Of a DNA stretch of 64,000 nt, positions 3,782-26,540 are shown in pieces (the stretch's first letter is position 1; each line of letters opens with the position of its first letter). The stretch covers positions 928,001-992,000 of the forward strand of contig CBDFGR010000003.1 of the NCBI GenBank assembly GCA_965247115.1, given 5' to 3'. This stretch comes from Myxococcota bacterium. Its GTDB lineage: Bacteria; Myxococcota_A; UBA9160; SZUA-336. Made by a program: the position numbers and the translations under genes. Below the pieces are notes generated by a model that was given only the letters and a program-made list of their open reading frames with translations, was not told the origin of the DNA and made no database searches.

Positions 3782-3813
3782 ACCGAGCGCGTACTGCGGA
3801 GCGTCTTCTTCGA

Positions 3814-4581: not shown

Positions 4582-4769
4582 CCTGGGTACTCGTCGCCGA
4601 TCTCGTAGGTCCACCTCAGCCCCCGTCTCCACCGCACGCCGAGGACCGCGCGGTCCGCTGGCGGCAGAGCGCTCCCTGCAGGAGTTCTGGATTGAACTCT
4701 ACCAGCTCGGCTACGCAGGGATCACGCAGTGGCGGGGACCGTGCGGAACACGGCGGTGCGAGCGCCTTC

Positions 4770-4845
4770 CTCGACGAACTGGAGCACGGTCGCCCGATGC
4801 CCGTATCCCCGCCGTTGACGATTGCCGTCCTGCCGTCCAGGCGCC
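4770..4845 (-). pseudogene. Remnant of an SDR N-terminus
   Basis: LRRLDGRTAIVNGGDTGIGR resembles a TGGxxGIG Rossmann start, then degenerates. Confidence 0.45.
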
Positions 4846-5754: not shown

Positions 5755-5811
5755 TTCGGCCTCCTCAGACCACGCTTCGGTCCCACGGAGGCCCAGACCG
5801 GCGAAAGGGCG

Positions 5812-6306: not shown

Positions 6307-6576
6307 CGCCTGCCTCCAGCGGAGTTTATGAGCGTTCGTTGCTCTCTGACAAGCAATCCGGGCGGAGGCATCACTCGTTGTGTCCATGGCTCTCTGTGCC
6401 GGGGCTGCCCCCGAGTTCGAGCGGCTAAGGGCATTCGGCGCACCCCGCTCCCGGGGCTTCGGGCGTGACTCTATACGAGCCGCGGCCGAACCCATCAAAG
6501 GCTGTCACCTTCTATCGGCGCCGAACGCGCGTTCGAAGTCCACATCGAAGAGCTGAAACGCCTGATTGGCTCTTAG

Positions 6577-7155: not shown

Positions 7156-7158
7156 AGC

Positions 7159-7725
7159 TCAGTCGACCTCCGCCAGTGCGCGACGCAGCGACGACAGCCC
7201 CAGACGGATCCGCGACTTCACGGTTCCTAGAGGCTCTCCGAGCTCCGCGGCCACCTCGGAGTGGCTGAGTCCGGCGAAGTAGGCTGTCCGAATGGCAACC
7301 GCCTGCTCGCGGGGCAGCAAGGCCAGCGCAGCTCGAACCTGCGCACAGCGTTCCCCCTGCAAAGCCAGCGCCTCCGGGTTCGGCTCCGGCTCTGGCTCGG
7401 CCAGGCTACCCATCGACTCCAGCGCGCGGTGCTTCTCGCTTCTCCGCGCCCGCGAGCGCAGCAGATCGATTGCCTTCGAGCGGGCGATGGTCAGGATCCA
7501 CGCCATGGGACTAGCTCGTTTCGGCTCGTACGTCGCCGCCCGCGACCACACGCTCGCGTACGTATCGAGGGTTGCCTCTTCTGCGGTATCGGGGTCGCGC
7601 AGTATGCGGAGCGCCAGGCCGAACACGCGAGCGCTCGTCTCGTCGTAGAGCTCCGCCAGGGCAGATTCGTCCCCCCGCGCGGCCCTGTCGACCAGCGTGA
7701 CGTATGGGGTCTGCGAGGAACGCAT
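7159..7725 (-). CDS. ECF RNA polymerase sigma factor
   Basis: Region 2 (AEEATLDTY...WILTIARSKAID) and region 4 (GTVKSRIRLGL); start placed downstream of its putative promoter. Confidence 0.9.
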   Translation of the reverse strand: MRSSQTPYVTLVDRAARGDESALAELYDETSARVFGLALRILRDPDTAEEATLDTYASVWSRAATYEPKRASPMAWILTIARSKAIDLLRSRARRSEKHRALESMGSLAEPEPEPNPEALALQGERCAQVRAALALLPREQAVAIRTAYFAGLSHSEVAAELGEPLGTVKSRIRLGLSSLRRALAEVD

Positions 7726-7767
7726 TGGGGGCCGACGGGTCTCCTGACAGGAACCTATCAGAGACAA

Positions 7768-7793
7768 TACGGAAGGCGCCGCCGATTGGATCA
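7768..7793 (-). promoter_or_regulatory. Putative ECF (RpoE-ChrR type) autoregulatory promoter TGATCC-N16-CGTA
   Basis: Minus strand reads TGATCC aatcggcggcgccttc CGTA upstream of the sigma gene. Confidence 0.65.
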
Positions 7794-7896
7794 CAGGGGG
7801 GCCCGCGGGAGAAGCCATGGGGGTCCAAACGCATCCCTCGCGGGCCCCTGGAGCGCGTCCTTCGGCCCCAGCGTCCCTCCCGTCGGACTCGCTCCT

Positions 7897-8388
7897 CTAA
7901 TGGATCTGCCCCCGAATCTCTCCTGGGAAGTTCTGCAAGGTGTGAACGTTCACGTAGGTGTCCCCACTCCGGAGCGCGGCCAGCACGTCGTCCAGGTCCA
8001 GCCAGCCGCAGAAATTCTCTCCAAACTCAGGACGGTCCGGCGCCATGATGGGTCCATGAGCGATGGTCCCGTTCAAGGTAATAGCCGCATCGGGTTCCAT
8101 CATGAAGAGAGTGACTCCAGGTGGCCCGTCCATTCCCATCGGGGCGCAGTGGATGTGCGCGGCAAAGGCATTCGGCAGGTTGGATACGTCCAGGCTGTAG
8201 CGGAGCTTTCCGCGGAAGCTCCTGTGGATTACGAGCAGCCCCTCAGCCATGGTAGGAGAGACGAACTCATCGACATTCTCGGCGTCCGAGAGATCCGCGC
8301 GGAAGAACAGGCGACTGCGAGCCTCGGCGGAACTCGCGAAGGCGACACAACACGCCAGGGCGAGGAGAAATCGGAATGTGGTCTGCAA
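7897..8388 (-). CDS. Secreted CHRD domain protein
   Basis: AAHIHCAP...G.DGP and YVNVHTLQNFPGEIRGQI motifs; TTG start with AAGGAG RBS; signal peptide. Confidence 0.85.
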   Translation of the reverse strand: MQTTFRFLLALACCVAFASSAEARSRLFFRADLSDAENVDEFVSPTMAEGLLVIHRSFRGKLRYSLDVSNLPNAFAAHIHCAPMGMDGPPGVTLFMMEPDAAITLNGTIAHGPIMAPDRPEFGENFCGWLDLDDVLAALRSGDTYVNVHTLQNFPGEIRGQIH

Positions 8389-11032: not shown

Positions 11033-11077
11033 TGGTGACCCAGGCAGGATTCGAACCTGCGACTTCTTGCTCCGGAG
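11033..11077. repeat. att site (45-bp copy of the tRNA-Arg 3' half)
   Basis: TGGTGACCCAGGCAGGATTCGAACCTGCGACTTCTTGCTCCGGAG, identical to 26056-26100. Confidence 0.95.
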
Positions 11078-11183
11078 AGAAGCCAGGGCGTAATGGCGAG
11101 TAGTCGCCAGTATCAGTCCGTCAATGATATCAGTAACATACGCGCCATTGGTGTCGGCGAGTATTGGCCCGTATCAGCCGGTC

Positions 11184-11208
11184 GGCACCTATTTGGCACT
11201 GATTTTGA
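11184..11208 (+). repeat. Putative integrase arm-type site GGCACC-N5-GGCAC
   Basis: GGCACCTATTTGGCACtgATTTTGA; 23/25 identical to 25990-26014. Confidence 0.7.
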
Positions 11209-11214
11209 CGCTGA

Positions 11215-11505
11215 TCAGTGTACCTCGCTGCCCGGCGGGGGTTCCTGTGCGACAGCCCTCACAGCCTTCAGAGGAACGTTGTGCCCCACCTCCGCGGCGA
11301 AGGCCTTGTGCAGCCACCACCAGGCCAGGCTCAGGATCACGCCGTCCCGGACGTCCTCGGGCACGGCCTCGCGGATGCGCTCGGGCTGCCGCTCCATGGC
11401 CGCGTGCACGGCCTCGAGGATATGCCGGGTGTCCGTCTCCGCTCGGTGTTTCCTGTACGTGTCCCCGATCGCGCGGAGTGCCACCTTCGCCCATGCTTCA
11501 TACAT
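11215..11505 (-). CDS. Hypothetical protein downstream of capsid gene
   Basis: 96-aa ORF with GAGGAG RBS, same strand as capsid. Confidence 0.55.
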   Translation of the reverse strand: MYEAWAKVALRAIGDTYRKHRAETDTRHILEAVHAAMERQPERIREAVPEDVRDGVILSLAWWWLHKAFAAEVGHNVPLKAVRAVAQEPPPGSEVH

Positions 11506-11591
11506 TCCGACTCCTCGCAGTGATAAGAAGTGGGGACTGGCGGCTCAGCAACGAAACCACCCGTCCCCAGCGCAGGCCGCAGCAACGAAGC

Positions 11592-12899
11592 CTACGCTTG
11601 AACTGTCCCAACGCGCAGCGCAGACGGGCGCACGGTCTGGCCACCGAGCCGCGCAAACGGCAAGATGCCGATGTTCGGCGCGTAGCGCTCCACGAGGCGC
11701 TGCAGGCGCAGCTCCATCCTCTCCGCGATGACAAAGGCCGTGTTGAAGTCGCCCAGAATCACCGGCTTGTTCGCGATGTTGTCCGCGTTGGAGAGGAACT
11801 CGGTCATCACCATGGGCCGCGAGAACAGCTGACCTGGCAGCTGGTTGACTGGGAAGATCGGTCGTGAATCGTTGTCTTCCAACTTGAGGATCAGGCCGAA
11901 CGTGTCCGAGTTCATGAGCCATGTGGAGTTTCGGCGGTACTGCGCGGCCAAGTCGGTCCAGATGTTCACCATGCGCGGGTACGAGATCCCGTTGTCCCCC
12001 GCAACGGGGGTCGCGTAGGTGGACGCGTCGCCCACCACCACCGTGGAAACGCGATCGTCCGACGCGATCCCCTCCGGCTTCCCTACGCCGTCACCGAGCA
12101 GGAACGCGAGGTCCTGATCGAGCGAGAAGACCTCGCTGATCAGCGACGACAGCGCGCTCTCAAGGTTCCCGACGCTGTCCTGAAGCAGCTCCTGCGGGAT
12201 CTCGATGACGTCGGGGGACCAGGCGTGCACGGGCACCCGCTCCATGCCGAAGGTCGGGTTGTTCTGCACCGTCGGTGCGGTCCCGCCCGTCACGTACGCC
12301 TCGCCCTTCCAGTTGCCGTCGCCCTGGAGGAGCGTAGAGGTGTACATCTTCGGATTGACCGAGGCCTCGTTGATGGTGGGCCACACAGCGGCCGGTCCCG
12401 ACGTCTGCACGACGCGGGCGCCGGCGAGGCGCACCGCAGCGTTCCCTGCGACGGCCCGCAGGATCTCCTGCCGGAAGTCCTCCGGTACGGTGAAGCCTCC
12501 CAGGGAGTCGTCGCCCGAAAGTAACGCGTGAACCTCGTCCGGTCCTGCGCCGTGCTTCTCCGCCGCCTCGATCATCCGAGTGTGGGAGTTCTCTTGACTC
12601 CCGCAGTGAATGAATGCCTCGAAGATCGCGCGGTGCGCCTCGTCTGGCACACCGTGGTCCTGCTCGGGCGAGGTGACGACGATCGGCCTGTCGACCGGTG
12701 TGGCCATTTCGACTTCGAGCTCGAGTCTCTGCATGTCCGTCTTGTAGGCCCGAACGTCCACCATGGATTTATCGAACTTGATCTGTAATTCCGACCGTCG
12801 AGCGGGGAACTTGCGCAAGTCGTCGCCGATCTTGCGCGCCGCGTCGATCGCGCGGCTGAGCTTCTCCTGTGCGTGCTTGAGTTCAGCTTGTACACTCAT
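11592..12899 (-). CDS. Phage major capsid protein, HK97 family, with N-terminal coiled-coil extension
   Basis: GGFTVPEDF, ELLQDS, AFLLGDGVGKPEGI, WLMN, ILGDF, RLGG motifs; ATG 12899 with GGAG RBS overlapping terL end. Confidence 0.9.
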   Translation of the reverse strand: MSVQAELKHAQEKLSRAIDAARKIGDDLRKFPARRSELQIKFDKSMVDVRAYKTDMQRLELEVEMATPVDRPIVVTSPEQDHGVPDEAHRAIFEAFIHCGSQENSHTRMIEAAEKHGAGPDEVHALLSGDDSLGGFTVPEDFRQEILRAVAGNAAVRLAGARVVQTSGPAAVWPTINEASVNPKMYTSTLLQGDGNWKGEAYVTGGTAPTVQNNPTFGMERVPVHAWSPDVIEIPQELLQDSVGNLESALSSLISEVFSLDQDLAFLLGDGVGKPEGIASDDRVSTVVVGDASTYATPVAGDNGISYPRMVNIWTDLAAQYRRNSTWLMNSDTFGLILKLEDNDSRPIFPVNQLPGQLFSRPMVMTEFLSNADNIANKPVILGDFNTAFVIAERMELRLQRLVERYAPNIGILPFARLGGQTVRPSALRVGTVQA

Positions 12900-14403
12900 G
12901 TTTACTCCTGCTTGTGTTCCACTCGGCCACATGGCGCGGTGGGGGATCTTCAATGGGTGGTGTAACGTGGACGCGTTCAGCGTCGCGGGAGAAATCCCAC
13001 GTGCCGTTGGCCAGTGTGATCCCGAGGTCTCCGCTCGCGCGACCCTGCGAGGCGAGCCAGGCTGCGCCTGCGACGCAATTCGCCAAGTCGTCATGAGCCT
13101 TTCTCGGATGGTCTATCGAGTCCCTGCCACTCCGGGCGGTTCTCCGCTCCAAGGAACACAATTGTGTTAGGAGCTTCGGGTGGTCGGGAAGCTCGACGCC
13201 GCCGGAGTTGATCAAAGCGAGCAGCTCGATGTAGAGTGCTGACTTCGTAAGCTCGCTAGCGACGTACACGACGTCGTGCTTGGCGAACGCGTCGACCACG
13301 AACCCCGCCGCGTAGCGATCGCCGGAGACCTCACGGCAGTCGTACATGCGCAGCAATGGAACCAGCTCGGCGACGACGGTTTCAGGACTGAACGGTGGTC
13401 GGACCTCCCGGACCACGTCGATGACGACGGGGTGCTCCTCGGACTCGCGGTGCGCGATGGCCAGCGTGAACGAATCCCCGCGACCACCGCTCGGATCGGC
13501 GAAGGCACAATACGAAAATTCTTCGAGTGGCGGCAGCGAGTGGCGAGCCTCGACGACGCAGCTCTCGGCGGATTCGCGTGAGACAAAGGCCGCGATGCCG
13601 TCGCGGAACGTCGCCAGGTACTCAGAGGTGTTTCGCTCCGGGTCCGTTTTAATTTCCTTGGCGATCCACGCTTGATCCAACGTCGGGTTCATTGAAACGC
13701 TACTGGCCTGCCAGACGAGGACCTCCGAGTCATCTACACCGTAGTGAGTCGCGTGCGCGTCGTACAAGACGCCGCTCTTCCCGTACGGGGAGCTGAAGCC
13801 GATCAGCCGACCGCGGGTGGTGATCAACGTGGGACGGACCGCACCGACGATCTCGGTGTCTGGATTTGCCGTCGTGTCGTCCATCCAAAAACCAATTTCG
13901 TCGCATATGGCAGCGACGATCGTGCGGCCACGAATCGAGCGAAAGCTCGAAGTCGCCACCTCGATGGTGACTCCGGTGGTCAATTCAATCGACTGCGCCG
14001 TCTCCCGCACGATGAGCTTTTTCAGCGCGGGACACGAATGCAGCAAGCCTCTCGTGTACTTGAAAACGACGAGCGCTTGCGGTCGATCGGCGCCGAGGAC
14101 CGCGACGATCGGGACTTCGCCTGGGCTTAGGTGTTCGGCGTAGTTCTGAAGCGCCAAAAAAATCGCGATCAGCGCGACAATCTGTGATTTGCCAGCTCGT
14201 CTTCCGCAGATCAACCACGCCTCTCTGTATCCAGCGTTGCGGGGGGCGTTGCGTCCCGTGAACATCCGGAACAGCACGAGTTCCCTACCAGCTAGGGGCA
14301 GGCCGAAGATCACGGCGAGCAGCACTCGCCACGCCGCCCAGCTCTCACCAACGAAGGTCCGGCCGAGCAACCGCGGATGCGTCATGAGGTCGACAACGTT
14401 CAT
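12883..14403 (-). CDS. terL: Terminase large subunit
   Basis: Walker A GRRAGKS, Walker B AICDE, coupling motif FSSP, RNase H-like FADPSGG...HDDLAN. Confidence 0.85.
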   Translation of the reverse strand: MNVVDLMTHPRLLGRTFVGESWAAWRVLLAVIFGLPLAGRELVLFRMFTGRNAPRNAGYREAWLICGRRAGKSQIVALIAIFLALQNYAEHLSPGEVPIVAVLGADRPQALVVFKYTRGLLHSCPALKKLIVRETAQSIELTTGVTIEVATSSFRSIRGRTIVAAICDEIGFWMDDTTANPDTEIVGAVRPTLITTRGRLIGFSSPYGKSGVLYDAHATHYGVDDSEVLVWQASSVSMNPTLDQAWIAKEIKTDPERNTSEYLATFRDGIAAFVSRESAESCVVEARHSLPPLEEFSYCAFADPSGGRGDSFTLAIAHRESEEHPVVIDVVREVRPPFSPETVVAELVPLLRMYDCREVSGDRYAAGFVVDAFAKHDVVYVASELTKSALYIELLALINSGGVELPDHPKLLTQLCSLERRTARSGRDSIDHPRKAHDDLANCVAGAAWLASQGRASGDLGITLANGTWDFSRDAERVHVTPPIEDPPPRHVAEWNTSRSKHECTS

Positions 14404-15041
14404 TTCGAAGACTTGGCCTCGTCGATCTCTGTCGCGATGGTGTGCAAGCTCTCAGCCTCGGCGACCTTCAACGGCGTGACGCCGATGACAGCCAGGTGTC
14501 GCAACGTGAGCGCCTGCAGGGTCGAGAACTTCTCCGCGTCCTTTGTCGGTCCGGGGTTCTGGAGGAAACGGCTCATCAGCGCGTCCGCCGCGACCTGCGA
14601 CCGGAGCCACCCGTCGATGGCGCAGATCTGTGTAGTCGAGACGTTCTCCGTTCCACCAAGGTCCTCCACGATCGCGGTCGCCTGCTTGCTACGCATTTCG
14701 AGGAGGGGCTTCAGACTCTCGTGCACCTCTGCGGTTTCGAGGAAAGCGTCCACATCCCTTCGGCGGACGGCATGCTTTTTCTTCATCGCGGCGCTGACTA
14801 GCTTGCCGTGTGCGGCGCGTCGCTCCGGCGGCCAAAATCCCGGGATGCCGGCGTAGGGCGGCTTGCCCAGGCGGACGTTTTGGGCCCTCTGCGCTTCGAC
14901 CCTCTCCTTACTCCAGCCAGCCTCCCTCGCGTCCACCAGGCGGCCTCGCTTGAAAAAATGGACGCCGTTGCCGTCGTAGAGGCCGTCGCGGCTCGGGCGG
15001 CCGTGTTTGTCGAAATGGGTTGGGCGTTTCTGTTTCGACAC
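14400..15041 (-). CDS. Putative terminase small subunit-like protein
   Basis: Stop overlaps terL start (ATGA); basic N-terminus and helical C-terminus; assignment is positional. Confidence 0.5.
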   Translation of the reverse strand: MSKQKRPTHFDKHGRPSRDGLYDGNGVHFFKRGRLVDAREAGWSKERVEAQRAQNVRLGKPPYAGIPGFWPPERRAAHGKLVSAAMKKKHAVRRRDVDAFLETAEVHESLKPLLEMRSKQATAIVEDLGGTENVSTTQICAIDGWLRSQVAADALMSRFLQNPGPTKDAEKFSTLQALTLRHLAVIGVTPLKVAEAESLHTIATEIDEAKSSK

Positions 15042-15375
15042 TTTTCTGCGTCGCTCCAAGGAGATTTGGATTTTTCGCACGCACTCCCACGCACCGGAGA
15101 GGGCCACCGGCCGAGATCCCGGGGGCCCACTTCGTCGGGATTGCGTCAGGGAAGTGGGCTCCGGCGTCTGAACACATAGGCCGCGGCGCGCCGAAACTTG
15201 AGCGGGACCGAGGGGGGCTCACGGTGTGGACCGAGCAGAGGCCAGCTCGGCGCCCCGGGGGTCGGGGCTGGGGACTCGCGCCCGCCCGCGCTTGCTGCAC
15301 AAGCAAGCGGTCGTGGGCTGAACGCACCAAATCCCTAATGAAATAGAGGTGTTAGAGGTTCCTACCCTCGACGCA

Positions 15376-15431
15376 GGTGCCAGATTGGTGCCTCCGCGAG
15401 GACCAGAATCACCAGTATAATCAGTTACTTA
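15376..15431. promoter_or_regulatory. Inverted copy of arm-type motif plus IHF consensus site
   Basis: 15376-15392 reverse complement is GGCACCaatctGGCACC; 15419-15431 AATCAGTTACTTA fits WATCARNNNNTTR; AT-rich patch. Confidence 0.5.
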
Positions 15432-15634
15432 CGGCCTTGGCTCTATTTTGACACCGATAAGTAGATGGTAAAAACACACTACACAAAAATGTGAGCCGAG
15501 CGCGCTTCACGATGACGCCACGGCGTTGGCGCAGCTAGGCCGAGCGGAGAGGGTCGGCGCAGGGAGGAGAAGGGGCTGAGGGGCTCATGTAGACGCGCCC
15601 GTTGTCATGCCGGCCCTCCCATCCGACGTGCGGG

Positions 15635-16459
15635 CTAGGCCCGGATCCCCCAGTTGATCCCGTTGCGGAGGAGGGTCTGGAAGCCCTCGGTATCCCAGGA
15701 GCCGCGAAACGTCCCCGGACTCTTCTCGTCGGGGGAGACGCTGGCGTCCACGAAGGGCTGGCCGTCTGTGGACGGCGAGTGGCAGTGACCCAGGGCGAAG
15801 TACGTCACGCCTCCCTGGCCGACGTCCTTGGTGTAGCCCAGGACCCGCGTCTTCCCGTCTGGGAGCAGCGCGGCGGTGTGGTCGTACTCCAGCCAGGAGA
15901 ACGTCGACGGAGTCGGGTCCTTGGGAAGCTCGGTGGTGAGCAGGAAGTGATGCTTCGACTCGGGGTCGAGCTCCAGGAAGTAGAGCTCATCCATGACCTC
16001 GAAAGACTCGGGGAGGCCGCGGGTGAGCGGGTGCGACCGATCCGCGACGTCGACGCGGAACTTGCACAGTGGCGGGTGGTGGATGACGAGGGCGCCAAGG
16101 GTCTCGTGGTGGCTCCCCTTCTCCATCTTCCGGCCCCCACCGGGGAGTCGCGCGGCCTTTCCGGCGGAGCTGCCGTGCAAGGCGAGCCAGCGACCGCCGC
16201 CCTCGAGCCAGCTCTGGACGAACTCGTTCTGCGCGTCGTTCAGATAGGGTCCGGCCACGTAGGTGACGAGGAACTGTCGATCGGTCAGCCACTGCTCGAT
16301 CGCGCTGAAGTCGTTCGCGACGGTCGCGTGGACCTCTTGCCTTTCCTGCAGGAGCTGGAGCAAACGCAGGCGCGCGTAGTCCATGTCGTGTCCGGCGGTC
16401 TGGCCCGCCGGGAAACCCCCGGTGACCACGTGGACTCGGACGGGTTCGGAATGGCTCAT
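15635..16459 (-). CDS. ThuA domain (trehalose-utilisation-like) protein
   Basis: GGRWLALHGS, HPLTRGLPESFEVMDELY, GQGGVTYFALGH, W...F..LLRNGINW. Confidence 0.85.
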   Translation of the reverse strand: MSHSEPVRVHVVTGGFPAGQTAGHDMDYARLRLLQLLQERQEVHATVANDFSAIEQWLTDRQFLVTYVAGPYLNDAQNEFVQSWLEGGGRWLALHGSSAGKAARLPGGGRKMEKGSHHETLGALVIHHPPLCKFRVDVADRSHPLTRGLPESFEVMDELYFLELDPESKHHFLLTTELPKDPTPSTFSWLEYDHTAALLPDGKTRVLGYTKDVGQGGVTYFALGHCHSPSTDGQPFVDASVSPDEKSPGTFRGSWDTEGFQTLLRNGINWGIRA

Positions 16460-16579
16460 CGGACGCTCCTTCTCGCAAGTCGTCGTGCGAGCATCCCACG
16501 ATCGCGCCGCGTCGTCTAGGGAAGGCGACAGGCGCCGCGGGACTCAGCAGGTCGGGTTGGGCAGCTCGGTTCCCCTCCT

Positions 16580-16710
16580 CTCCACACGCCCTGTGTGGAG
16601 TCTCTCCGGGCGAGCCAGCGAGCTGGGCTTATAGCCCCAGCTCGCGGCTCGCATCGATCGAGGAGAGCCTAGAAATCCGTGCTGGTGCGGCAGCTCGCGA
16701 GCTAGCTCGC
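16580..16710. other. Hairpins and GCGAGC/GCTCGC short repeats at 3' end of primase gene (candidate origin or terminator)
   Basis: CTCCACAC-gccct-GTGTGGAG; long imperfect palindrome 16610-16652; repeated GCGAGC hexamers. Confidence 0.45.
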
Positions 16711-18759
16711 ATCGGCAGCCCCCGTGGAGGTGAGCTGGACCAGTTTCTTTTTCCGCCCCGTGCCTTCGACCATCTCAGCCCGGCCGTCCTCCACGGCCTC
16801 CTCGATCATCTTCTTGGCCTTCGTGCTCGCTGTGCTGTTGGGGCGGGACTTTGAGCCCGCGGGCTTGGCGTCCATGATTCGCCATGCGATGTCCGATTGC
16901 GTGAGCTGCTCCCCGGGCTTGAGGTAGTCCTCCAGCAGCTTCTCCGGCCGTTTCTTCTCGGGACGCCAGTACCGGATCAGCCCTGGTTCATCTTCCGAGT
17001 CGGCGACGCGGAAGGTGTGCTCCCGCTGGGGCACGGCGTTGCCGTCCACGGTGAGTCGGCGGTGGTGGTGATCACCACCGCGGTCAAGCCGCCACTGAGC
17101 TACGGTCACTGCCCCGATGGCGCTGGCCCCGCGGGCGGAGACGCGGGCGTCGGAGCGGTCCGCGTGTCCCATGTGGTGTACCAGGACGAGGTAGGTCCCG
17201 AACTCGATCGAGATCTCGGCCAGGGCGTCGAGCCAGCCGCTCATCGCGGTGTTGTCGTTCTCGTCGATTTCCAGGGGCTTGAGCCGTGACAGGGAGTCCA
17301 GGAGGACGAGGCCGAAGGGCTCGCCGTGATCGCGGGCGTACTCGAGCAGCTCGCGGAGCAGCTTGAGGCCCTCCTGGTCGAGCGTGCGGATCTTCCGCGA
17401 TTGGCGCAGGTCCTTCCCGATCATCAGGACCCCGTCTTCCCAGTCGGGGTAGCGGGGTCGGAACATTCCAGCGTCCGATCTCTTCTCTGCCATGCGGCGT
17501 GCGACCTTGTCGATACGCCGGACGTCCTGCTCATTCGAGAGGATCAGCACGCGCGTGCCGGACAGCTTCGGTGCCCCTGCCCACGGCGACTCGCCCGTAG
17601 CCCAGGCGAGCCCGAGGTTGATACCGAAGGTGGTCTTCCCCGACTGGTTGTGACCGAGCAGGGCGTGGATTCCGGGCTCGGGATCTAGAAAACCGGGTAG
17701 CGGGCTCTCGGGATCAGGCTGCTTTCGGAGATTGCGCAGCTCGCGGCCGGTGAGGCCAACGTCGTACGGTGAGTTCCGGGGCTCTGCAGCTTCAGTCCGC
17801 ACCTCGCCCTGCTCGGCCGCGATCGCCTTGCGCGCCGTGTGCTCGTAGTACCTGAGAGGTTTCTGCTCCAGCTCCGCCGTCTCGTGCGAGGCCACCATGA
17901 GGGCCAGGAGCTGCGCAGGCGCGACACCCAAGCGCAGGGCCTGCTGGCACATGGCGTAGTCGATGTTGGACTGGTCTGGCAACCCGTTTGGCTTGCGCTT
18001 GGTCTCGCCGACGTCGCGGTCGTTGAAGTACGCGTGGAGCATCTGGAAGCGCTGTTCCAGGATCTCCAGCGTCTCGTCGGTGAGCTTGTCGTCGAACTCG
18101 CCGACGTCCGCCAGCTCGAGTGTTTCGACATCTAGGCGGAAGGGCTCGAAGTCTCCGAAGTCGTATTCGAGAGCTGGATGCCGTTGGACGATGCGGCACG
18201 GGCGGGGCGGGTCGTACTTATAGTTCAGGGAGCCGGGGATGCGCATGCACCTGCTGGCATCCGTCGCCGCCATGTCCCCATCGATGGCCTTCGCGATGCC
18301 CTTCAGGACACCTTCGAACGCGCGCACGTTCGACTCATCGAAGGCGTACGCTTCTCGGAGCCGCCAGTACAGGTGGACGCCCCCACCGGACGCGACGATC
18401 ATGGTAGGCGGTGGCAGGCCCGCGTCCTGGCGGCGCTGCTCGGCCTGCTCGAAGGTGGTGCCGTCAACGTCGCACCATAGGGCGCCGGCCCCGTGGAGGT
18501 TGTCCTTGCCACCTCCACCTGCAGGATCGCGCCACGTCGCGACCCGGATGAAGGGCGCCTCCCCGGGCTCCTGATCACCGAGGTCCCCCACGTCCAGCGA
18601 GAGAGCCTCTTCGGTGCTGAGCAGCCATGGAGGCTTCACGCGTCCGTCCGCGTAAAGCGTGCGCGGCTCGACCCAGCCCTGGGTGCCGCTGAAAAGCGTC
18701 TGGATGAAGACGGGAACGTCGTCCAGATTGACGACATACGGAATTTCGATAGAATCCAC
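16702..18759 (-). CDS. Primase-helicase (RepB-like AEP primase + AAA_25/RepA-type helicase)
   Basis: LWCDVD, SGGGVHLYW, RCMRIPGSLN primase motifs; Walker A GHNQSGKT, Walker B VLLDSL; GTG start with GAGGG RBS. Confidence 0.85.
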   Translation of the reverse strand: MDSIEIPYVVNLDDVPVFIQTLFSGTQGWVEPRTLYADGRVKPPWLLSTEEALSLDVGDLGDQEPGEAPFIRVATWRDPAGGGGKDNLHGAGALWCDVDGTTFEQAEQRRQDAGLPPPTMIVASGGGVHLYWRLREAYAFDESNVRAFEGVLKGIAKAIDGDMAATDASRCMRIPGSLNYKYDPPRPCRIVQRHPALEYDFGDFEPFRLDVETLELADVGEFDDKLTDETLEILEQRFQMLHAYFNDRDVGETKRKPNGLPDQSNIDYAMCQQALRLGVAPAQLLALMVASHETAELEQKPLRYYEHTARKAIAAEQGEVRTEAAEPRNSPYDVGLTGRELRNLRKQPDPESPLPGFLDPEPGIHALLGHNQSGKTTFGINLGLAWATGESPWAGAPKLSGTRVLILSNEQDVRRIDKVARRMAEKRSDAGMFRPRYPDWEDGVLMIGKDLRQSRKIRTLDQEGLKLLRELLEYARDHGEPFGLVLLDSLSRLKPLEIDENDNTAMSGWLDALAEISIEFGTYLVLVHHMGHADRSDARVSARGASAIGAVTVAQWRLDRGGDHHHRRLTVDGNAVPQREHTFRVADSEDEPGLIRYWRPEKKRPEKLLEDYLKPGEQLTQSDIAWRIMDAKPAGSKSRPNSTASTKAKKMIEEAVEDGRAEMVEGTGRKKKLVQLTSTGAADAS

Positions 18760-18851
18760 TTTAGTAACCCTCTGCTCGTGGGTGGCTGATCTGGAGCCCC
18801 GCTGACCGTCGCGTCGGCGGGGCTTTATCGTGGGAGCCCGGAACGTCCCAA

Positions 18852-19067
18852 CTACTTCCGGCGACGCGCCGAGGCGCGCTCTGTGGCCGTCACGCCTCCC
18901 CTCTCCACGAACTCGCGGAGCGCTGACGGCGAGAAACGCAACCACCGCCCCAATCTGACCGCGGGAAGTACTCCCTGGTCGACAAGGCCGTATACCATCT
19001 GGCGATCTGCGGAGAGCAACCGGGCGACTTGGCGCGCAGTCAGCAGTTCTGAGTCGGGCTTTTGCAT
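18852..19067 (-). CDS. Excisionase-like HTH (HTH_17) protein
   Basis: LLTARQVARLL...VYGLV..G.LPAVRLGRWLRF. Confidence 0.85.
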   Translation of the reverse strand: MQKPDSELLTARQVARLLSADRQMVYGLVDQGVLPAVRLGRWLRFSPSALREFVERGGVTATERASARRRK

Positions 19068-19289
19068 CTGGCGATTCCTTGAGGGGGCATGGCCCGTGCT
19101 CGCGAGCCATCGGGAAGTCTAGCGAGCCTTCCCCCCTTGGCAAGGTTTACTGACTCTATAAAGATCCATGATGACACGGATCGCCGATTCGTAATAAACC
19201 CACCTATAAGCGCTCTAAATGGATGATTAGGTGTAATCCCTTACACTGCGTGCTTGACCACTGCGATGAATTGAGATACTGGAAACCTA

Positions 19290-19502
19290 ATGAACGACCC
19301 AGAAAATATTGACCTCGGAGGTCGACCACCGTTCCCCCCGGACAAGCTCCGGGATCGGGCGGTGAAGTTCATGGTCACCCGGCGCGAGCTGGAGGCCTTG
19401 CAAGCAGGTGCGCGAGCGGCGGAGCGCAACCTTGCGGAGTACGTCAGGTCGATCGTGCTCACCCGGCTCGGCATTGCCAGAGAGGAGGAAGAGAACCGAT
19501 GA
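19290..19502 (+). CDS. Small ribbon-helix-helix-like DNA-binding protein
   Basis: GRPP...RAVKFMVTRRELEALQAGARAAERNLAEYVRS resembles MobC/CopG-like RHH; ATGA overlap with integrase. Confidence 0.6.
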   Translation: MNDPENIDLGGRPPFPPDKLRDRAVKFMVTRRELEALQAGARAAERNLAEYVRSIVLTRLGIAREEEENR

Positions 19503-20674
19503 CTCAACAGCGCGGTCAGATGATAAAGGATCCAACACACGACGGTGTGTGGAGGCTCCGCTGGTTCGAAGGTCGAAACTCGAAAGGCAAGAGGATCTAC
19601 CGCTCGAAAACGGTGCATGGCAAGCGTAAGGCTGCCGAGAAGGAGCTGCGTCGTATTCTCCACTCGAAGGACGTCGGCAAGTACGGCTCACCCAGTCGGG
19701 TGACCGTTGACGAGCTGCTCGACAAGTGGCTGGACGAGGCCCATGGCCAGCGTGTCTCCGGCCGCACGCTCGCCACGCACCGCACCTTGCTCGATACCCA
19801 CGTCCGCGAGGTGATCGGACACCGCCGAATTGACCAGCTGAACACCCTGCAGGTGCAAGAGCTGCTGAACGGAATGAGTAGGCGTCGTGGGAGGAAGCTC
19901 TCGCCGCGGACGCACCAAATCGTGTTGCAGCTCCTCCGCTCTGCGCTCAGAAAGGCCCGCACCTGGAACTTCATTGCGCACGACCCCACCGACGACGTCG
20001 AGGTGCCCCGCGACGCCAGCCAGCGCGGTAAGCGACGAGTCTTGAGCATCGAAGAGCTGCGCCGCTTCCTGGCTGAAGCGGGTAAGCGCGATGACCGAGG
20101 GAACTCTACGCGGTGGCTGACGCTCTGGTCGCTGGCGGCTACGACGGGTGCGAGACCAGGTGAGCTGCTGGCGTTGACGTGGGCGGACATAGATTTGGAC
20201 AGGGGTGAGATCCTGATCTGCCGAGCGCTTACCAAGGACGTGGAGGGAAAGCTCCTGGTCGGTCCCACAAAGACCCAGCAGACCCGCCGCGTGTCGATCG
20301 ACACTCCCGTCATCGACACCCTGGCGGCGCACAGGCTCGCTCAGCGTGAATACGCATTGGGGTTGGGACCCGCATACGACCGAAGCGGAGATCTCGTCTT
20401 CCCCACCCATCGAGGCGCCCTGCTCCACACCGCGAATGTGCGCCGCGAGTACCTGGCTGTAGCTAAAGCAGCGGGGATCACGGGTGCGCGCGGACCCTAC
20501 GACTTGCGCCACACCGCGGCGAGCCAGCTCTTGGAGGCGGGTGTCCCGGTCACTGACGTCGCTCAGCGGCTTGGGCACTCCGTCGACACCCTGACCACCA
20601 CCTACGCGCATGCGTTGCCGGATAACCAGCGCCGCGTCGCCGACATCGCCGGCAAGCTTGTCTTCGGGCGGTAA
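19499..20674 (+). CDS. int: Tyrosine integrase
   Basis: TGARPGE (R), PTKT (K), YDLRH, LGH, TTYAH catalytic residues; N-terminal arm-binding-like region. Confidence 0.95.
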   Translation: MTQQRGQMIKDPTHDGVWRLRWFEGRNSKGKRIYRSKTVHGKRKAAEKELRRILHSKDVGKYGSPSRVTVDELLDKWLDEAHGQRVSGRTLATHRTLLDTHVREVIGHRRIDQLNTLQVQELLNGMSRRRGRKLSPRTHQIVLQLLRSALRKARTWNFIAHDPTDDVEVPRDASQRGKRRVLSIEELRRFLAEAGKRDDRGNSTRWLTLWSLAATTGARPGELLALTWADIDLDRGEILICRALTKDVEGKLLVGPTKTQQTRRVSIDTPVIDTLAAHRLAQREYALGLGPAYDRSGDLVFPTHRGALLHTANVRREYLAVAKAAGITGARGPYDLRHTAASQLLEAGVPVTDVAQRLGHSVDTLTTTYAHALPDNQRRVADIAGKLVFGR

Positions 20675-21697
20675 TCCGATGGTGCTGAACCGAGAGTTTG
20701 CTTTTCCGAGCTAACGCTCGGATCTGTCGTAAGCTGGCAGACGTCGGTTGATATGATCGAGTTGTGCGGATAGGGGTTCCTTTGTGGCTTACTTCCTCCA
20801 AGGCTTCGCGGTCTTCCTCGGTGTAGTGGCAGGCACAGCCGTAACGATCCTCGTCGGGCTCTACTTCCGCCGAAGAGAGGAAGACGCAGCAGACGCGAAA
20901 TCTGCGCTTTGAACTCGAACTCAATATTGGGAAGATCGAGAAGTGGCTTGAGGAACTCCAGCGCTATCGGGATGCCGTAAACGGGGACTCTCTCCAGACC
21001 TACTTTGGTTACTTCGATCTCCACAGATTCGTGTCCGTAACTATGAACGCAATGTTTCTGTCTGGCCTTCTTTACAGGAAGCTAGACCGTGGAGAGATCG
21101 GCAAACTCCAGATGATAGTCTCCGAATTCTCAGCCAACGGAGAGCAATTCATCACGAGTCAGCTAAACGAGAACAAAGAGGCACTCGAGCGCTGCACGAT
21201 GGAAGGTCATTTGGACCTATGGACCTCCGACTTCAAACAGCGTGCGGTTGCCCACATCCACTTCTGGGAAAAGAAATCGGAATTACCTAGTTTAGGGTCT
21301 TGGCATTCTTCTAGCGAATCCCTTGCTCTTTGAGCTTCGCGATTAGCTCCGCTTGTGTACCCGCGCCTTTCGTGCTGTTACACGCGCCACAGAGCAGTTG
21401 CAGGTTGTCGAAGTGATCGGTCCCGCCTTTGCTCTGCGGAACTACGTGGTCAATTGTGAAGTTGCGGAATGGGAACGCTTCGCGGCATCCCCCGCAACGC
21501 CCCTCCTGCTTCCCGAATAGCTGGTGCTTGTGCGTGCGGTAGCTCGGGAGCTTGCCTAGGTCCGTGCGCTTCGGAATGTCGGAGCGTCGGATCGGCTCGA
21601 AGTTGTGGAACAGGTCAAGGTCGATTTGACGTACGCGGAGCTGTACGAGGTCCACGGCCTTATCGGATATATCGATCCCGACCCATTGACGGTCTAG

Positions 21698-22972
21698 CAG
21701 GCTGCGGAGAAAGTGACTGGTTGAGGGGTGGTCCTTCCGACGAGGGGGTTCACCGGCCGAGGGGCGGGGCGCGATTCCCGGTTCGAACCGGTCTTGGGCT
21801 CCGCTGATCGCGGGGCGGTTTCGCACATGACCTACGTGGCCTCCAGCAGCTTGCGGATCCGGATCAGGTTGTAGGCTGCGGCCGTGAAGGTGAAGACCCA
21901 GCCGACCCGATCCGTGCCGCGGTGTCGGGTCTTGCGCATCAGCCCCACGGTCTTCATCCAGCCGAAGACCTCTTCCACCCGTTTGCGAAAACGCTGACTC
22001 AGTTCGTAGCCCCGGTGGCGCGTCGTCCGCCCGTCGATCGCGCTGCGTCGATTCGTCGTGTTCTGCGCCACGTGTGGGGTCACGCCCAACTCTCGAAGCT
22101 CTTCCACGAACCCCTTCGTGTCGAAGCCCTTGTCTCCGCCCAATGTCCTCCGACGCCCGCCTCCCAGACCTTCCACCATCTCGAGCGCCGCTTCGCGCTC
22201 CGCATATCCCGACGCCTGCGTGAGCTTCGCCGCGACCACCAAGCCGTTCCGGTTCTCCGTCACCACGTGTCCCTGGTACGCGAGTCGGGCGCCTTGGCCT
22301 CTCATACCGGCGAGTCGTGCGTCGGGATCCGTCGTCGACGCATGCGTCTGGTTGCTCCGCTTCTCGCCTCGGAAGTTCACCGTCGGGTTGCCCGGGTCAT
22401 CGTCGTCTCTCCGTTCCTCGTCCTTCCGTACGAAGCTCTTCTGGCTCGCCCACGCCTCGATCAGCGTCCCGTCTACCGTGAAGTGCTCCAACGACACCCA
22501 TCCCTCGGTCTCGGCCTGCTCCAGCACTGCGTCGAAGAAGTGCTCGGCAATCTCGCCCTTGAGCAGCCGGTCTCGGTTCTTCGTGAACACCGTGGCGCTG
22601 AACACCACCTCGTCAAGCTCCAGACCCACGAACCAGCGATACAGCAGGTTGTACTCCAGCTGCTCCACCAGCTGCCGCTCGCTCCGGATGGTGTAGAGCA
22701 CCTGCAGCAGCAGGGCGCGCAGCAGCTGCTCCGGGGGCACGGACGGGCGCCCTACGCCTCTGGCGTAGATCGCGTCGAAGCGCGGCGATAGCCGCTGCAG
22801 CGCCGTGTCGACCATGCGCCGCATCGCTCGAAGCGGATGATCATCCGGAATCCGCGACTCCAGCGACACGTAGCTGAACATCCCGCCCTGAAGCGTCCCC
22901 TGTCCTCTCACGCCTCCCCCTTTGGGGCTCGCTCCCAAGGTACCCTTCGATGAGGAGTTTTTCAGCAGCCTG
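21698..22972 (-). mobile_element. IS5-family insertion sequence (1275 bp)
   Basis: Imperfect TIRs CAGGCTGCGGAGAAAGT / CAGGCTGCTGAAAAACT; CTAG TSD at 21694-21697 and 22973-22976. Confidence 0.92.
21832..22911 (-). CDS. tnp: IS5-family DDE transposase
   Basis: GRPSVPPEQLLRALLLQ (DUF772-like), VDGT, GDKGFD, RKRVEEVFGW. Confidence 0.92.
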   Translation of the reverse strand: MRGQGTLQGGMFSYVSLESRIPDDHPLRAMRRMVDTALQRLSPRFDAIYARGVGRPSVPPEQLLRALLLQVLYTIRSERQLVEQLEYNLLYRWFVGLELDEVVFSATVFTKNRDRLLKGEIAEHFFDAVLEQAETEGWVSLEHFTVDGTLIEAWASQKSFVRKDEERRDDDDPGNPTVNFRGEKRSNQTHASTTDPDARLAGMRGQGARLAYQGHVVTENRNGLVVAAKLTQASGYAEREAALEMVEGLGGGRRRTLGGDKGFDTKGFVEELRELGVTPHVAQNTTNRRSAIDGRTTRHRGYELSQRFRKRVEEVFGWMKTVGLMRKTRHRGTDRVGWVFTFTAAAYNLIRIRKLLEAT

Positions 22973-23946
22973 CTAGGCGTTCTGCGGCCACGCAAGCCGT
23001 GGCGCAACCGGAGAATGGATCTAGAACTACATCGCCTTTGTCGGAGCTGGCCTTGATAATGCGGTCAAGTAGCGCCAGTGGTTTCTGTGTAGGATAGCCG
23101 ACACGCTCTTTGGCTCGTGAGTTAATTGGGGAAATGTCAGGCCACAAATCGGCGACCGCCTGGCCAGGCATTTCATCTAGATAGCGCTTCAACTGAGGGA
23201 TCTTACTCTCGGTATAGATCCGACCCTCGTCATCGAGTTGGTTCATCTTGTCTTCCGTCATACGCCAAGCCTTCATGATGCCGTGGAACTCGTAGACGGG
23301 TCCACGTCCCCCTGGAGCGTTCAGATTGTCTAGCCGATACGATCTCCCGTCATTGTCCTTGTGTGTGAACTTTCCCTTGATGTAGTCCGCCGAATAGGGG
23401 ATACGAACCCGGTTGAAGGTGTAGCGATCGCTGTGCGAGTAAAAGAGGATCCTGTCGCTAATCGATCCGAAACGCTTGGCGTCCGCATGGAAATTGAACC
23501 GCTTCCATGTGATTTCGTTGCGGAAGTTGCTTTGCCCGAGAATTGCATCCATGAGGGTTTTCAGATAATGGGACGCAGTAGGGTCACAGTGAAGGTATAG
23601 GCTTCCTGTAGGTTTCAGAACGCGCTTCATCTCGAACATTCGAACAGCCATCATGATGGAGTACGACTTCATGCTGGAACCGTGCGCCAACCCCGCCGCG
23701 TCGATAATCGAGTACACGGCGGGGTTCTGCTCTGCGATCTCTCCGTGCCATGCAAGATCCACGTCGTCTAGCGTCCACGTATCTTTGAACGCTGCACCCG
23801 CTGCCTGCGATCCGATAGGAGCGCTGTAGTTCTTATTCGAGTTGAACGGTGGGTCGAGGTAGATTAGGTCGACACTCTCGGAGTTCATACCGCGCATGAT
23901 GTCGAGATTGTCCCCGGTCCACATGGTCCGGTTCTTCCAGTTGGGA

Positions 23947-24825
23947 TCACTCAATATCAAGCTCAAGATTCGTGTTTGTCTTCGGGTAGGCACGTTGCAG
24001 CATGCGCCTGAAATGGTTCCATTCTATAGATCCACGCATGATCGCCATCACACCGGTTAGATGTCTTTGTAGCGCTGGATGTCCAATATCGGTGGTTAGC
24101 CACTGATGGTGCATTGCTCGGCGACGTCCCGTTTCAGTTTTAGGGTTTAGTCTCTCCAGTTCTTTCCTGACGCCGGGTGCTAGTCGATCCCAGACGAAGT
24201 CGTTTGTGTAGTGACCAACGACACTCGGACGATTCACCTTCATCCCCTTCCATTCCCAGCTACGGAGTCTGAAAATCTCCTTGTAGAACTCATCCGGGAA
24301 CCGCTTCGCCCATTTTGCATGTTCAGCGACGAGGTATTTGTCGAGTATCCGGTTAAGTGCATTCCGGTCCCGAATTTCTTGGTAACTGGTCGCTTCATCG
24401 ACCAAGGCAATGATGCCTACGATTGCTAGTCCCCGCAGAAGAACTTCACAGGCCGCCGCAGTACGCGCCTGTGCTGGCATGAGCACACCATCTTTTCTGG
24501 CGCGGAGGTACACTTCACATACTTTAGGGAGCAGTTCTGCCTTATAGCCATAAGCTTGTCCACGCCCAGGAATTGCAAACTTTATACGCCTGCTCGAAAC
24601 GGCTAAGTCTTTGTCTACATAGGGTTTTAGCGTCTCTGACGCGAGAAATGGGGCGATCTCCTCGAAACGGGAACCTCGGCCGTGAGGCCGAACTGATCGG
24701 TCAAGTGCTCGTAGAAAAGACGATTGTGTGAGTATGCGGGTGCCGTCATTGAGCACCGCACACTCGACGATAATGGGGCCAATATGCAGCTCGCCAGTAT
24801 GTGTTGCCTTGGGAAGGATGCTCAT
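23947..24825 (-). CDS. P63C domain protein
   Basis: LAIVGIIALVDEATSYQ, WAKRFPDEFY, HHQWLT.DIGHP.L motifs; ATGA overlap with transposase. Confidence 0.85.
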   Translation of the reverse strand: MSILPKATHTGELHIGPIIVECAVLNDGTRILTQSSFLRALDRSVRPHGRGSRFEEIAPFLASETLKPYVDKDLAVSSRRIKFAIPGRGQAYGYKAELLPKVCEVYLRARKDGVLMPAQARTAAACEVLLRGLAIVGIIALVDEATSYQEIRDRNALNRILDKYLVAEHAKWAKRFPDEFYKEIFRLRSWEWKGMKVNRPSVVGHYTNDFVWDRLAPGVRKELERLNPKTETGRRRAMHHQWLTTDIGHPALQRHLTGVMAIMRGSIEWNHFRRMLQRAYPKTNTNLELDIE

Positions 24826-25718
24826 TGCGTTACTCCCAGTCCGCGAGTGACGGTAAGGTCGAAGGCTTCGAAGGGATCAGCCTTCCGTAGGTTGTAGCGG
24901 TAGCAGAACTCGTCCACGTAGCGCTGCAAGTGCTTCCGGCTTACGCTGTGGAACTGTCCGAACATGCCGCGCTTTAGGAGAGCCCAAAACCCCTCAATCG
25001 TGTTGGTGTGAATGTCGCCGTCTACGTACCAGTCTTGGTGCTTGATTACAGCGTGCGGCAGAATCCTGGCCATTCCGAGATAGGCTTTGTACTCGTCTGT
25101 AATCAAGCTGGACCGCGTGGTATCGATGCGCTCGCGAACGAAGGCGCGCATGTGGCGGCCTTTCATCTTGTCCTTAGCCACGGCCTTCGCCGTTACCTTG
25201 CCCTCACGCTCTACAGCTCCAATCACGGGCGCTTTCTCGGTGCCTCGGCCTCTCTTATGCGTACCGCCCGGCCCTGTGCCCTTGGTGCCTCTTCTGGGCT
25301 TCCCGCCGACGTAGGTTTCGTCCATCTCGATGATGCCTGTAAGCAGGTTGCGCTGTTCTGCTTGGGTCATGGCCTTGCGGATTTGCATCGAGATCCGCCA
25401 AGCAGTGTTCTTATTCACGCGGAGGTCACGAGAGAGCTGAAGTGCCGACAGGCCCTTTCTAGCGTTCAGCATGAGCATGATCGCCAAGAACCACTTTTGC
25501 ATCGGCATGTGCGTATGGTGAAAGATCGTGCCGACCGTCACGCTGAAAGAGGTCTTGCAGTCGTAGCACCGATGCCGTCGGCGCTTGTCGTTACTGCGAG
25601 CCGTATTGACCGATCCGCAATAAGGACACGCTACCTCGTCGCCCCAGCGAGTCGCCTCCAGGTGAGCGATGCAATCCGCTTGTGTTGGAAAGCGCTCGAA
25701 AATCCCTATGATGTCCAC
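24822..25718 (-). CDS. tnp: IS1595-family transposase
   Basis: Zn ribbon CPYC...CYDC, EMDETYVGG, TDE, HTNTIEGFW, YVDEFCYRYN. Confidence 0.95.
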   Translation of the reverse strand: MDIIGIFERFPTQADCIAHLEATRWGDEVACPYCGSVNTARSNDKRRRHRCYDCKTSFSVTVGTIFHHTHMPMQKWFLAIMLMLNARKGLSALQLSRDLRVNKNTAWRISMQIRKAMTQAEQRNLLTGIIEMDETYVGGKPRRGTKGTGPGGTHKRGRGTEKAPVIGAVEREGKVTAKAVAKDKMKGRHMRAFVRERIDTTRSSLITDEYKAYLGMARILPHAVIKHQDWYVDGDIHTNTIEGFWALLKRGMFGQFHSVSRKHLQRYVDEFCYRYNLRKADPFEAFDLTVTRGLGVTQ

Positions 25719-25766
25719 GACGTATTCCCCTTGCCTGTGCCGATTTGGTTTCCTTTGTCAGAATCC

Positions 25767-25795
25767 AATATGGCGCAGGAAAGGGGGTATGTCAA
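25767..25795 (-). promoter_or_regulatory. Sigma70-like promoter with -35 inside the IS1595 TIR
   Basis: TTGACA-N17-CATATT pointing at the transposase; the other TIR has TTGGCA. Confidence 0.6.
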
Positions 25796-25989
25796 GACCC
25801 TAAACTAGGCAATTCCGAAAGAAATTCCAAGAGCACAAACTCACCCTCGCGGAGATCGCTGGGAACCTCAGCTGAGAGGACTCTTACAACGCGAACTCTT
25901 CGACCCGGGGTCGCATATGGCCTGGCGCTCTAGGATTGCTCCTGACGGCCGCGCAGGTTCGGCTCCGGCTGGCACAGGCTTCGACAATA

Positions 25990-26014
25990 GGCACCTATTT
26001 GGCACCCATTTTGA
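25990..26014 (+). repeat. Putative integrase arm-type site
   Basis: GGCACCTATTTGGCACccATTTTGA. Confidence 0.7.
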
Positions 26015-26055
26015 ACCGGGTGGCAGGGGCGCCTCTCGTAAGTCCCTATCGCCAT

Positions 26056-26133
26056 TGGTGACCCAGGCAGGATTCGAACCTGCGACTTCTTGCTCCGGAG
26101 GCAAGCGCTCTATCCAGACTGAGCTACTGGGCC
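26056..26133 (-). tRNA. tRNA-Arg(CCG)
   Basis: Cloverleaf: acceptor GGCCCAG/CTGGGTC, anticodon arm CTTGC-CTCCGGA-GCAAG, GGTTCGAATCC T-arm, encoded CCA. Confidence 0.95.
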
Positions 26134-26540
26134 ACTAAGGATTCCGCGCACTTAGCGCGCCGGCGCCGGACACCAAGCGTCGAAGTGTTGCCACAGTGTT
26201 GCCACGCGGTCAAACCGAGTGATCTCTGTCGTGGGGCCCTCCCAGATTGGATCGAGGGATGAGCGACGAACTGAACCTAGATCGCGATTTCGAGCAGGAC
26301 TGAGCCGAGTCCGAGCAGACCCTCAGGACGTTCGAGCTGCAGCTCGGAACGCACTCCATCTTGCACTCGGCCGAGCTAGCCAGCCGTAAGTGCGCGAATC
26401 GTGGAGTTTCGGTGGCGCTAGCGCATGCGACTGCCCATCGCACGCGCGAGATCAAGTCGCCGGCGTTTCGAGGGGTGGCCTGCGAGATTCTGGTTCAGTG
26501 GATGAGTTGCGCCAGCGGCGAGTCCACGATGGATCGGTTC

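Follow-up and report, generated by a model that had tools for sequence, protein, structure and literature searches.

A putative PICI-like satellite with its own terminase and a phage-type capsid gene, and no detected portal, in a Myxococcota bacterium

Phage satellites are thought either to redirect the packaging motor of a helper phage by means of a small terminase, as phage-inducible chromosomal islands (PICIs) do, or to build a whole head, as capsid-forming PICIs (cf-PICIs) do. In this work, we are describing an integrated element located at a tRNA-Arg(CCG) gene in a 64,000-nucleotide stretch (the window) of a Myxococcota genome (contig CBDFGR010000003.1). It encodes a large terminase (TerL), a predicted small terminase (TerS) and an HK97-fold major capsid protein (MCP), and no portal gene was detected in it by the searches given below. 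Statements on published systems refer to portions of the cited papers, and negative ones hold for these portions.

Gram-negative PICIs, such as EcCICFT073 and PmCI172 (PMC10085698, PMC6092414), share with the element an integrase and a primase-replicase, and likewise have a portal-less capsid gene and no tail or holin; a small helix-turn-helix (HTH) regulator and a small terminase, as in PICIs, are predicted in the element. The median size of PICIs is 9.5 kb (PMC10085698); the element is near 10 kb. It differs in its intact TerL, since PICIs are described as having TerS only, which redirects the helper TerL, and TerL is named as a cf-PICI-specific core gene (PMC10085698). The regulators differ as well: the SatelliteFinder PICI model uses curated AlpA, MerR or Stl (PMC10085698), whereas in the window no curated AlpA match was found, and the regulators there are, according to Pfam, an HTH_17 Xis and a ribbon-helix-helix protein. 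One relative (L080; L numbers denote the loci studied) carries AlpA (PF05930).

The cf-PICIs, represented by EcCIEDL933 (10.1101/2022.09.08.507074), also have their own MCP, TerS and TerL on an island of 10-15 kb bounded by attachment (att) sites and devoid of tail genes. No counterpart of their portal, protease, head-tail connector, adaptor and packaging HNH genes was found in the element, and its TerL and MCP are of different origins, while TerL and MCP trees agree in cf-PICIs (10.1101/2022.09.08.507074). SaPIbov5 Ccm, a satellite-encoded capsid-fold protein 23% identical to the helper capsid, is used with the portal, capsid and terminase of the helper (PMC6893505); unlike Ccm, the window MCP shares 59% identity with a capsid protein from a phage, and it adjoins its own TerL. 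Portal-less satellite capsid genes are already known from SaPIbov5 (Ccm), PmCI172, EcCICFT073 and PICI-like tycheposons (PMC6893505, PMC6092414, 10.1101/2020.12.28.424599). PICI-like tycheposons, VEIMEs, EPIPs and phiAH14b are small integrative satellites, often located in tRNA genes, with MCP and/or TerS (10.1101/2020.12.28.424599, PMC9618062, PMC12822802, PMC4936722), and EPIPs also carry a tape measure protein, as do many members of the window TerL family. In place of the TerS-TerL-MCP set of the window, tycheposons have MCP or TerS (10.1101/2020.12.28.424599), VEIMEs have no MCP and presumably use the helper TerL, EPIPs have TerS only and phiAH14b has no terminase (PMC9618062, PMC12822802, PMC4936722). 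No description of TerL-bearing portal-less satellites was found in the literature searched (few subscription journals, no supplements), and SatelliteFinder lists may file members as PICIs. The element probably works like a PICI, is no cf-PICI, and is a capsid-bearing variant of a large terminase-carrying, portal-less satellite family, possibly a new class. What defines it and makes it unusual is that TerS and TerL are both there while a portal is missing, and not the capsid.

Packaging genes and the search for other head genes

The terS, terL and MCP genes lie next to each other (Table 1). An earlier note on this DNA had taken the overlap of terL with the MCP start as a sign that no scar was left where portal and protease normally sit. 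The overlap (17 bp) is real; as evidence for the absence of a scar it is weak, because the conservation of TerL stops near residue 446 of 506, the last ~60 residues being variable, and four terL-MCP elements have a 135-165-bp spacer at this place. An assembly artefact at the junction was ruled out with short-read contigs of one sample: positions 11033-15656 were reproduced without difference in two runs, a third spans the terL-MCP junction, and the junction lies inside single contigs, free of differences, in 3/3 runs.

Relatives of TerL are numerous, with at least 4,264 at E 1e-20 or better among 8,000 scored candidates, the best at ~50% identity. Residues D168/E169, D303, D362 and D438/D439, together with Walker A/B, are invariant across 40 TerL homologues, and three strict catalytic patterns were matched by 69/79 full-length TerLs from genomes. 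Among INPHARED phages only distant TerLs were found (8 records, up to 27% identity); a PDB sequence search gave no match for TerL alone and only weak terminase matches for its profile (E 0.04-0.65).

The gene upstream of terL most likely starts at GTG 15041, giving 213 aa. It matches the hidden Markov model (HMM) of the family's TerS at E 5.7e-4 (among ~16,600 open reading frames, ORFs), and for its structural model the top three BFVD matches are small terminases (probability 0.97-1.0, E 0.09-0.14), with the HK97 TerS appearing only at rank 45 of the PDB fold list. Pfam and PHROG gave no match to it, and the PDB sequence search nothing meaningful; for one member of the TerS family the Atlas lead is PF05119 at 0.87. 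From its position, the family HMM, the PF05119 lead and the fold matches, the product is predicted to be TerS.

No portal, protease, adaptor or tail protein was matched by PHROG or Pfam among the ORFs of the element, and no remnant came up in tblastn with 231 queries (70 portals, 53 proteases, 27 adaptors and 81 from elsewhere in head and neck); the sole signal, a weak one (E 0.008, ~19660-19800), lies inside int. On this point the earlier note was borne out. The element has no unassigned ORF of portal size, no protease domain fused to the MCP was found, and the only HNH gene is a passenger within the IS1595-family insertion, so no packaging HNH was found. Searches of the element by Pfam, PHROG, fold and tblastn revealed no holin or connector, and tblastn gave no prophage remnants such as tail and lysis genes or a portal-protease operon. 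The 96-aa ORF downstream of the MCP gene was considered as a gp6-like head-tail connector, from a motif resemblance, and is left unassigned: BFVD and a wide PDB fold search gave no support, no connector appears among the top fold matches of its model, and the best Z score (6.8) is to unrelated bundles. It has no Atlas match and no relatives in viral contigs.

The TerL family and its capsid genes

A scan of GTDB gave at least 570 TerL-family loci, and the genome-locus counts below refer to the best 80 of them, selected by similarity. The usual layout, drawn with our own gene caller, is integrase, small HTH gene, primase, a 110-150-aa gene (terS), terL and variable genes, the small gene before terL being one family, present in 75/80 loci. 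An integrase was found in at least 52 loci, an MCP without portal in seven, a tape measure in 11, a baseplate hub in eight, a protease in six and none of the searched virion genes in 51. A portal was found in a single locus (L048), also when only the 64 loci having at least 4 kb downstream are counted. The earlier note had held that portal and protease between terL and MCP in close homologues would mark this copy as a deletion derivative; the close TerL homologues are without them. The PHROG scan covered 135 downstream genes (one per cluster, at least 100 aa, within 4 kb of terL), six-frame ORFs of the loci were then scanned with local profiles made from the portals found, and 133 further large genes near genome loci were covered by these local profiles alone.

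Among 80 viral loci a portal was present in 46, of which 42 are without the TerS family, and 27 have the TerS family and no portal. The TerL family is common to true phages and small elements. Repeats overlapping tRNA genes bound 25 of the 96 loci examined (24 distinct), with sizes of 9.3-17.7 kb. In a FastTree tree of 153 TerLs, from which 10 near-duplicates or fragments and all ORFs below 400 aa were excluded, the window TerL groups among portal-less loci (support 0.73); the tree gave no direction of transfer.

The MCP has another history. Its closest relative, 59% identical over residues 6-435, comes from a tailed phage with another TerL family, and a 62%-identical fragment occurs in a same-genus genome. 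For the subfamily of the window MCP (47 proteins), loci were followed up in viral (45) and metagenome (57) sequences, with 62 distinct proteins among them. Of these proteins, 47/50 with upstream context are preceded by a protease, and 15 of the 22 with at least 4 kb are accompanied by a PHROG 2662/12 portal; the next head gene or adaptor of that lineage follows in 39/46, and the window TerL family stands beside none of the 62 MCPs. A simple deletion is unlikely because the closest MCPs belong to phages using other TerL families; such a deletion from the MCP donor phage was rejected, the donor TerLs being of PHROG 2/979 types with no match to the family HMM. The window operon appears to be a mosaic in which a terminase of the family was combined with a capsid gene from a phage, and not a phage operon that lost its middle.

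Other portal-less terS-terL-MCP units exist. L003 (9.3 kb), L080 (9.6 kb) and L079 (10.2 kb) are att-bounded; further units are L061, L011 and L089, plus L184 and L189 from two genomes of the same class. L102 and L122 are portal-less MCP units with protease and tape measure added. L110, an IMG/VR contig of 8.2 kb (1-8231), has a 114-nt terminal repeat, i.e. it is circular, and carries terS-terL-MCP with xis-like and ParB-like genes; integrase or portal was not detected on it, and it is a possible plasmid-type satellite. The MCPs of the other portal-less units are 17-28% identical to that of the window or do not match it, and that of L031 belongs to a different PHROG family. As judged from these comparisons, the capsid is an accessory gene (7/80 genome loci) which was apparently captured several times. 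The distinct satellite type proposed in the earlier note is supported in part, namely as regards a portal-less element with its own motor. There is a weak hint on size: in a hand count, three of four att-bounded MCP carriers measure 9.3-10.2 kb, versus a median of 14.7 kb for 19 elements without MCP or portal.

Selection on these genes was estimated by the Nei-Gojobori method as the ratio of nonsynonymous to synonymous substitution rates (dN/dS) in 12 hand-picked pairs of close portal-less loci. TerL had values of 0.05-0.24, TerS of 0.09-0.44 and MCP (3 pairs) of 0.12-0.15, and dS exceeded 1 in several pairs. TerL and MCP are under purifying selection.

Several observations were made beside these. 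In the gammaproteobacterial terL-MCP elements L003 (12940-13140) and L011 (7449-7649) the MCP is followed by a Sigma70_r4 HTH gene, a candidate late regulator. A tape measure, baseplate hub or neck gene takes the place of the capsid in L006, L034, L037, L039, L045, L047, L073, L074, L098, L099 and others, which suggests tail hijacking; the contigs L098 and L099 end in terminal repeats. The window's own genome holds a second satellite-like element, L249 (G000:C3:654292-666646), with an integrase 41% identical to that of the window, xis, a primase-like gene, P27-type TerS (phrog_83), HK97-type TerL (phrog_9) and a tape-measure-like gene; portal or capsid was not found in it, and it is the same design with a different terminase lineage. 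In the same-genus genome G014 the TerL family has six matches (L186, L190-L193, L247), most of which are fragmented, and the tRNA-Arg 3' end occurs twice close to one of these.

Arm repeats upstream of terS and remaining features

A 16-nt repeat found on both att arms of the element occurs a third time, inverted, upstream of terS; it has three matches in 64 kb versus none in 100 shuffles. Next to the third copy lies a site (15419-15431) fitting the integration host factor (IHF) consensus, the only exact match in the window. Family-wide, the exact IHF consensus upstream of terS was not enriched (4/59, shuffle maximum 5), and one-mismatch sites were modestly so (35/59, shuffle maximum 29).

The recurrence was examined in 32 repeat-bounded elements, of which 26 have a perfect period-10/11 hexamer pair in their arms and six no usable repeat. 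In 12 of the 26, the window included, a further copy of the element's own pair lies no more than 500 nt upstream of terS, as compared with 9/608 other windows of the same elements and 4/130 cross-element tests; L011 and L080 show it under relaxed spacing or window. These counts come from elements that are not independent, and from a tandem test designed after a weaker, ungapped 16-nt version (15/32, versus 8/32 terL windows and 11/96 cross tests). The arm repeats show that the packaging genes evolve together with the integration system of each element. Integrase arm-type sites typically take the form of repeats on both att arms, so the third repeat would most likely be bound by Int, with Xis or TerS as alternatives.

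Both att sites seen in the earlier note are present, as a 51-nt direct repeat, 96% identical, corresponding to the 3' part of the tRNA gene. Its estimate of about 10.5 kb net of IS1595 also agrees with the computed 10,475 bp, 4,548 bp being assigned to that insertion. As to gene content, the ribbon-helix-helix protein, integrase, Xis, primase-helicase, TerL and MCP were recovered by Pfam or PHROG; the note had missed a ThuA-like gene, an IS5-like element nested in IS1595 and the remains of a cargo gene. The ThuA segment (963 bp) was captured recently and is 96% identical to a host locus (G000:C2:57900-58862) in a CoA-transferase/carboxylase region. The IS1595 element has an 8-bp target duplication, and between its methylase and HNH genes an IS5-like copy is nested (~21694-22977), with many 99-100% identical copies in the genome. 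For the frameshifted cargo remnant the spanning short-read contig shows no indel. Outside the element, just upstream of the tRNA gene, a distinct period-11 tandem repeat (~26160-26205) looks like an att arm of another or former element.

Table 1. Coordinates of features of the element in the window
Feature	Position	Strand	Remarks
attR, duplicated tRNA-Arg 3' end	11033..11083		51-nt repeat, 96% to 26056-26106
att-arm tandem repeat (period 11), putative integrase arm-type site	11184..11208	+	
96-aa all-helical protein	11215..11505	-	3 real homologues, 38-63% identical; AlphaFold2 (AF2) pLDDT 78
HK97-fold MCP, 435 aa, full length, N-terminal delta-like region	11592..12899	-	PF05065 E 1e-41
Large terminase TerL, 506 aa, Walker A/B and nuclease aspartates	12883..14403	-	PHROG 2 E 4e-18
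Predicted TerS, 213 aa, a divergent representative of the protein coupled to terL in the family	14400..15041	-	
Third, inverted arm-repeat copy	15377..15392		340 nt upstream of terS
Segment taken up recently from the host, carrying a ThuA-like ORF (15635-16459)	15603..16555	-	PF06283
Primase-helicase, 685 aa, RepB_primase and AAA_25	16702..18759	-	
Xis/AlpA-like winged HTH (predicted excisionase and regulator)	18852..19067	-	HTH_17 E 3e-11; PHROG 66
Ribbon-helix-helix regulator (predicted)	19290..19502	+	PF21983 E 5e-5, below cut-off
Tyrosine integrase	19499..20674	+	PF00589 E 2e-24; PHROG 1 E 4e-69
Cargo gene remnant, frameshifted, interrupted by IS1595	20781..21277	+	
IS1595-family element; transposase with P63C, N6-methylase and HNH passengers	21278..25817	-	30-nt inverted ends
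att-arm tandem repeat at tRNA end	25990..26014	+	
tRNA-Arg(CCG), attL	26056..26133	-	

Proposed mechanism, alternatives and meaning

On balance we favour the reading that the element is a PICI-like satellite, whose own terminase packages it through the portal of a helper, and whose captured MCP builds or resizes the head. Infection by a helper phage would lead to excision, and the primase-helicase of the element would replicate it. The predicted TerS together with TerL would cut its DNA and pump it through the helper portal. The MCP, likely captured from a phage, would assemble on this portal and be matured by the helper protease, and it would either form the entire shell or set its size in the manner of Ccm; tail and lysis would be borrowed from the helper. 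Int (or Xis) bound to the third repeat may link excision to expression of terS-terL-MCP or to the start of packaging. Docking of the family TerL on a portal of the MCP donor lineage is plausible because this portal family (PHROG 2662/12) stands beside the same TerL family in L048, L088, L142 and L196; it also pairs with several TerL types. More tentatively, and with somewhat less than even confidence, we propose a large class of satellites, in which a private TerS-TerL motor would dock on foreign portals. Virion genes captured from phages and exchanged as a cassette (capsid, protease, scaffold, tape measure, hub) would alter the size of heads or tails, and an integrase arm site upstream of terS would wire recombination to packaging.

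Several points weigh against the PICI-like reading. A helper portal was not found in the 98%-complete host genome with HK97-type PF04860, phrog_2662 and phrog_145 (phrog_146, which gave no signal in controls, is excluded from this negative), and neither the attP joint nor the empty-site joint was seen in the contigs of three runs of one sample. The window copy carries insertions of two IS elements as well as DNA captured from the host, its cargo gene is broken, and it may be inactive even with open core genes; most TerL-family copies of the same genus are fragmented. The TerS call is based on weak scores, with no fold-match E below 0.001. A portal is present in 46/80 viral loci, and a TerS-family gene occurs together with a portal in four viral loci and L048, which makes a gradient towards phages. 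In the FastTree tree, whose backbone is weakly supported, TerLs of phages with a portal lie scattered between portal-less ones, an intermingling which counts against a single clean origin. The strict arm test finds no repeat upstream of terS in 14/26 elements.

A series of decay, in which prophages or cf-PICI-like elements shrink by loss of portal and protease, the window copy being a remnant that no longer functions, would accommodate the mixed tree, the seemingly arbitrary subsets of virion genes among members, the insertions in the window copy and the broken state of relatives. We regard it as unlikely. In phages with relatives of the MCP the TerL is of other families, so that terL and MCP were brought together and are not leftovers; dN/dS stays far below 1 at dS above 1 in the syntenic portal-less pairs L003/L011 and L102/L122; the elements are as large as PICIs and have intact att sites; the repeat at terS corresponds, element by element, to that of the att arms; and the core genes of the window copy are all open.

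Improbable in our estimate is also an interference module, in which TerL and MCP mainly decoy or poison the packaging and assembly of the helper in a population-level defence, the DNA of the element being moved by the helper terminase or hardly at all. Capsid homologues of the Ccm type are described as strongly lowering helper titres (PMC6893505), no portal partner is encoded, and the accessory genes (MCP, protease, scaffold, tape measure, hub, neck) vary like interference cassettes. However, a poison need not keep its ATPase and nuclease sites, which TerLs of the family do in the motif and residue comparisons above, nor does the coupling of TerL to its own TerS in most genome loci fit this role. 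Very improbable is a portal-independent particle, i.e. MCP shells without portal, or DNA leaving by way of vesicles or particles devoid of tails, the role of TerS-TerL being limited to cutting concatemers to unit length: the circular contig L110 and the failure to find a helper portal in the host, or (by PF04860) in 5/5 other hosts, would agree with it, yet all Caudovirales are described as packaging via a portal (PMC6893505), most family members have no capsid gene at all, and the window MCP is collinear with MCPs that need protease and portal.

If the PICI-like reading is true, hundreds of 'defective prophages' and TerL-based viral calls would become satellites. A widespread intermediate between the two known designs, with a whole motor and no portal, would mean that the pairing of TerL and portal is looser than assumed, which is testable in cultivable hosts such as Thiomicrospira, Aliidiomarina, Nitrobacter and Bradyrhizobium. 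The arm repeat upstream of terS would offer a handle on how a satellite times its excision and packaging.

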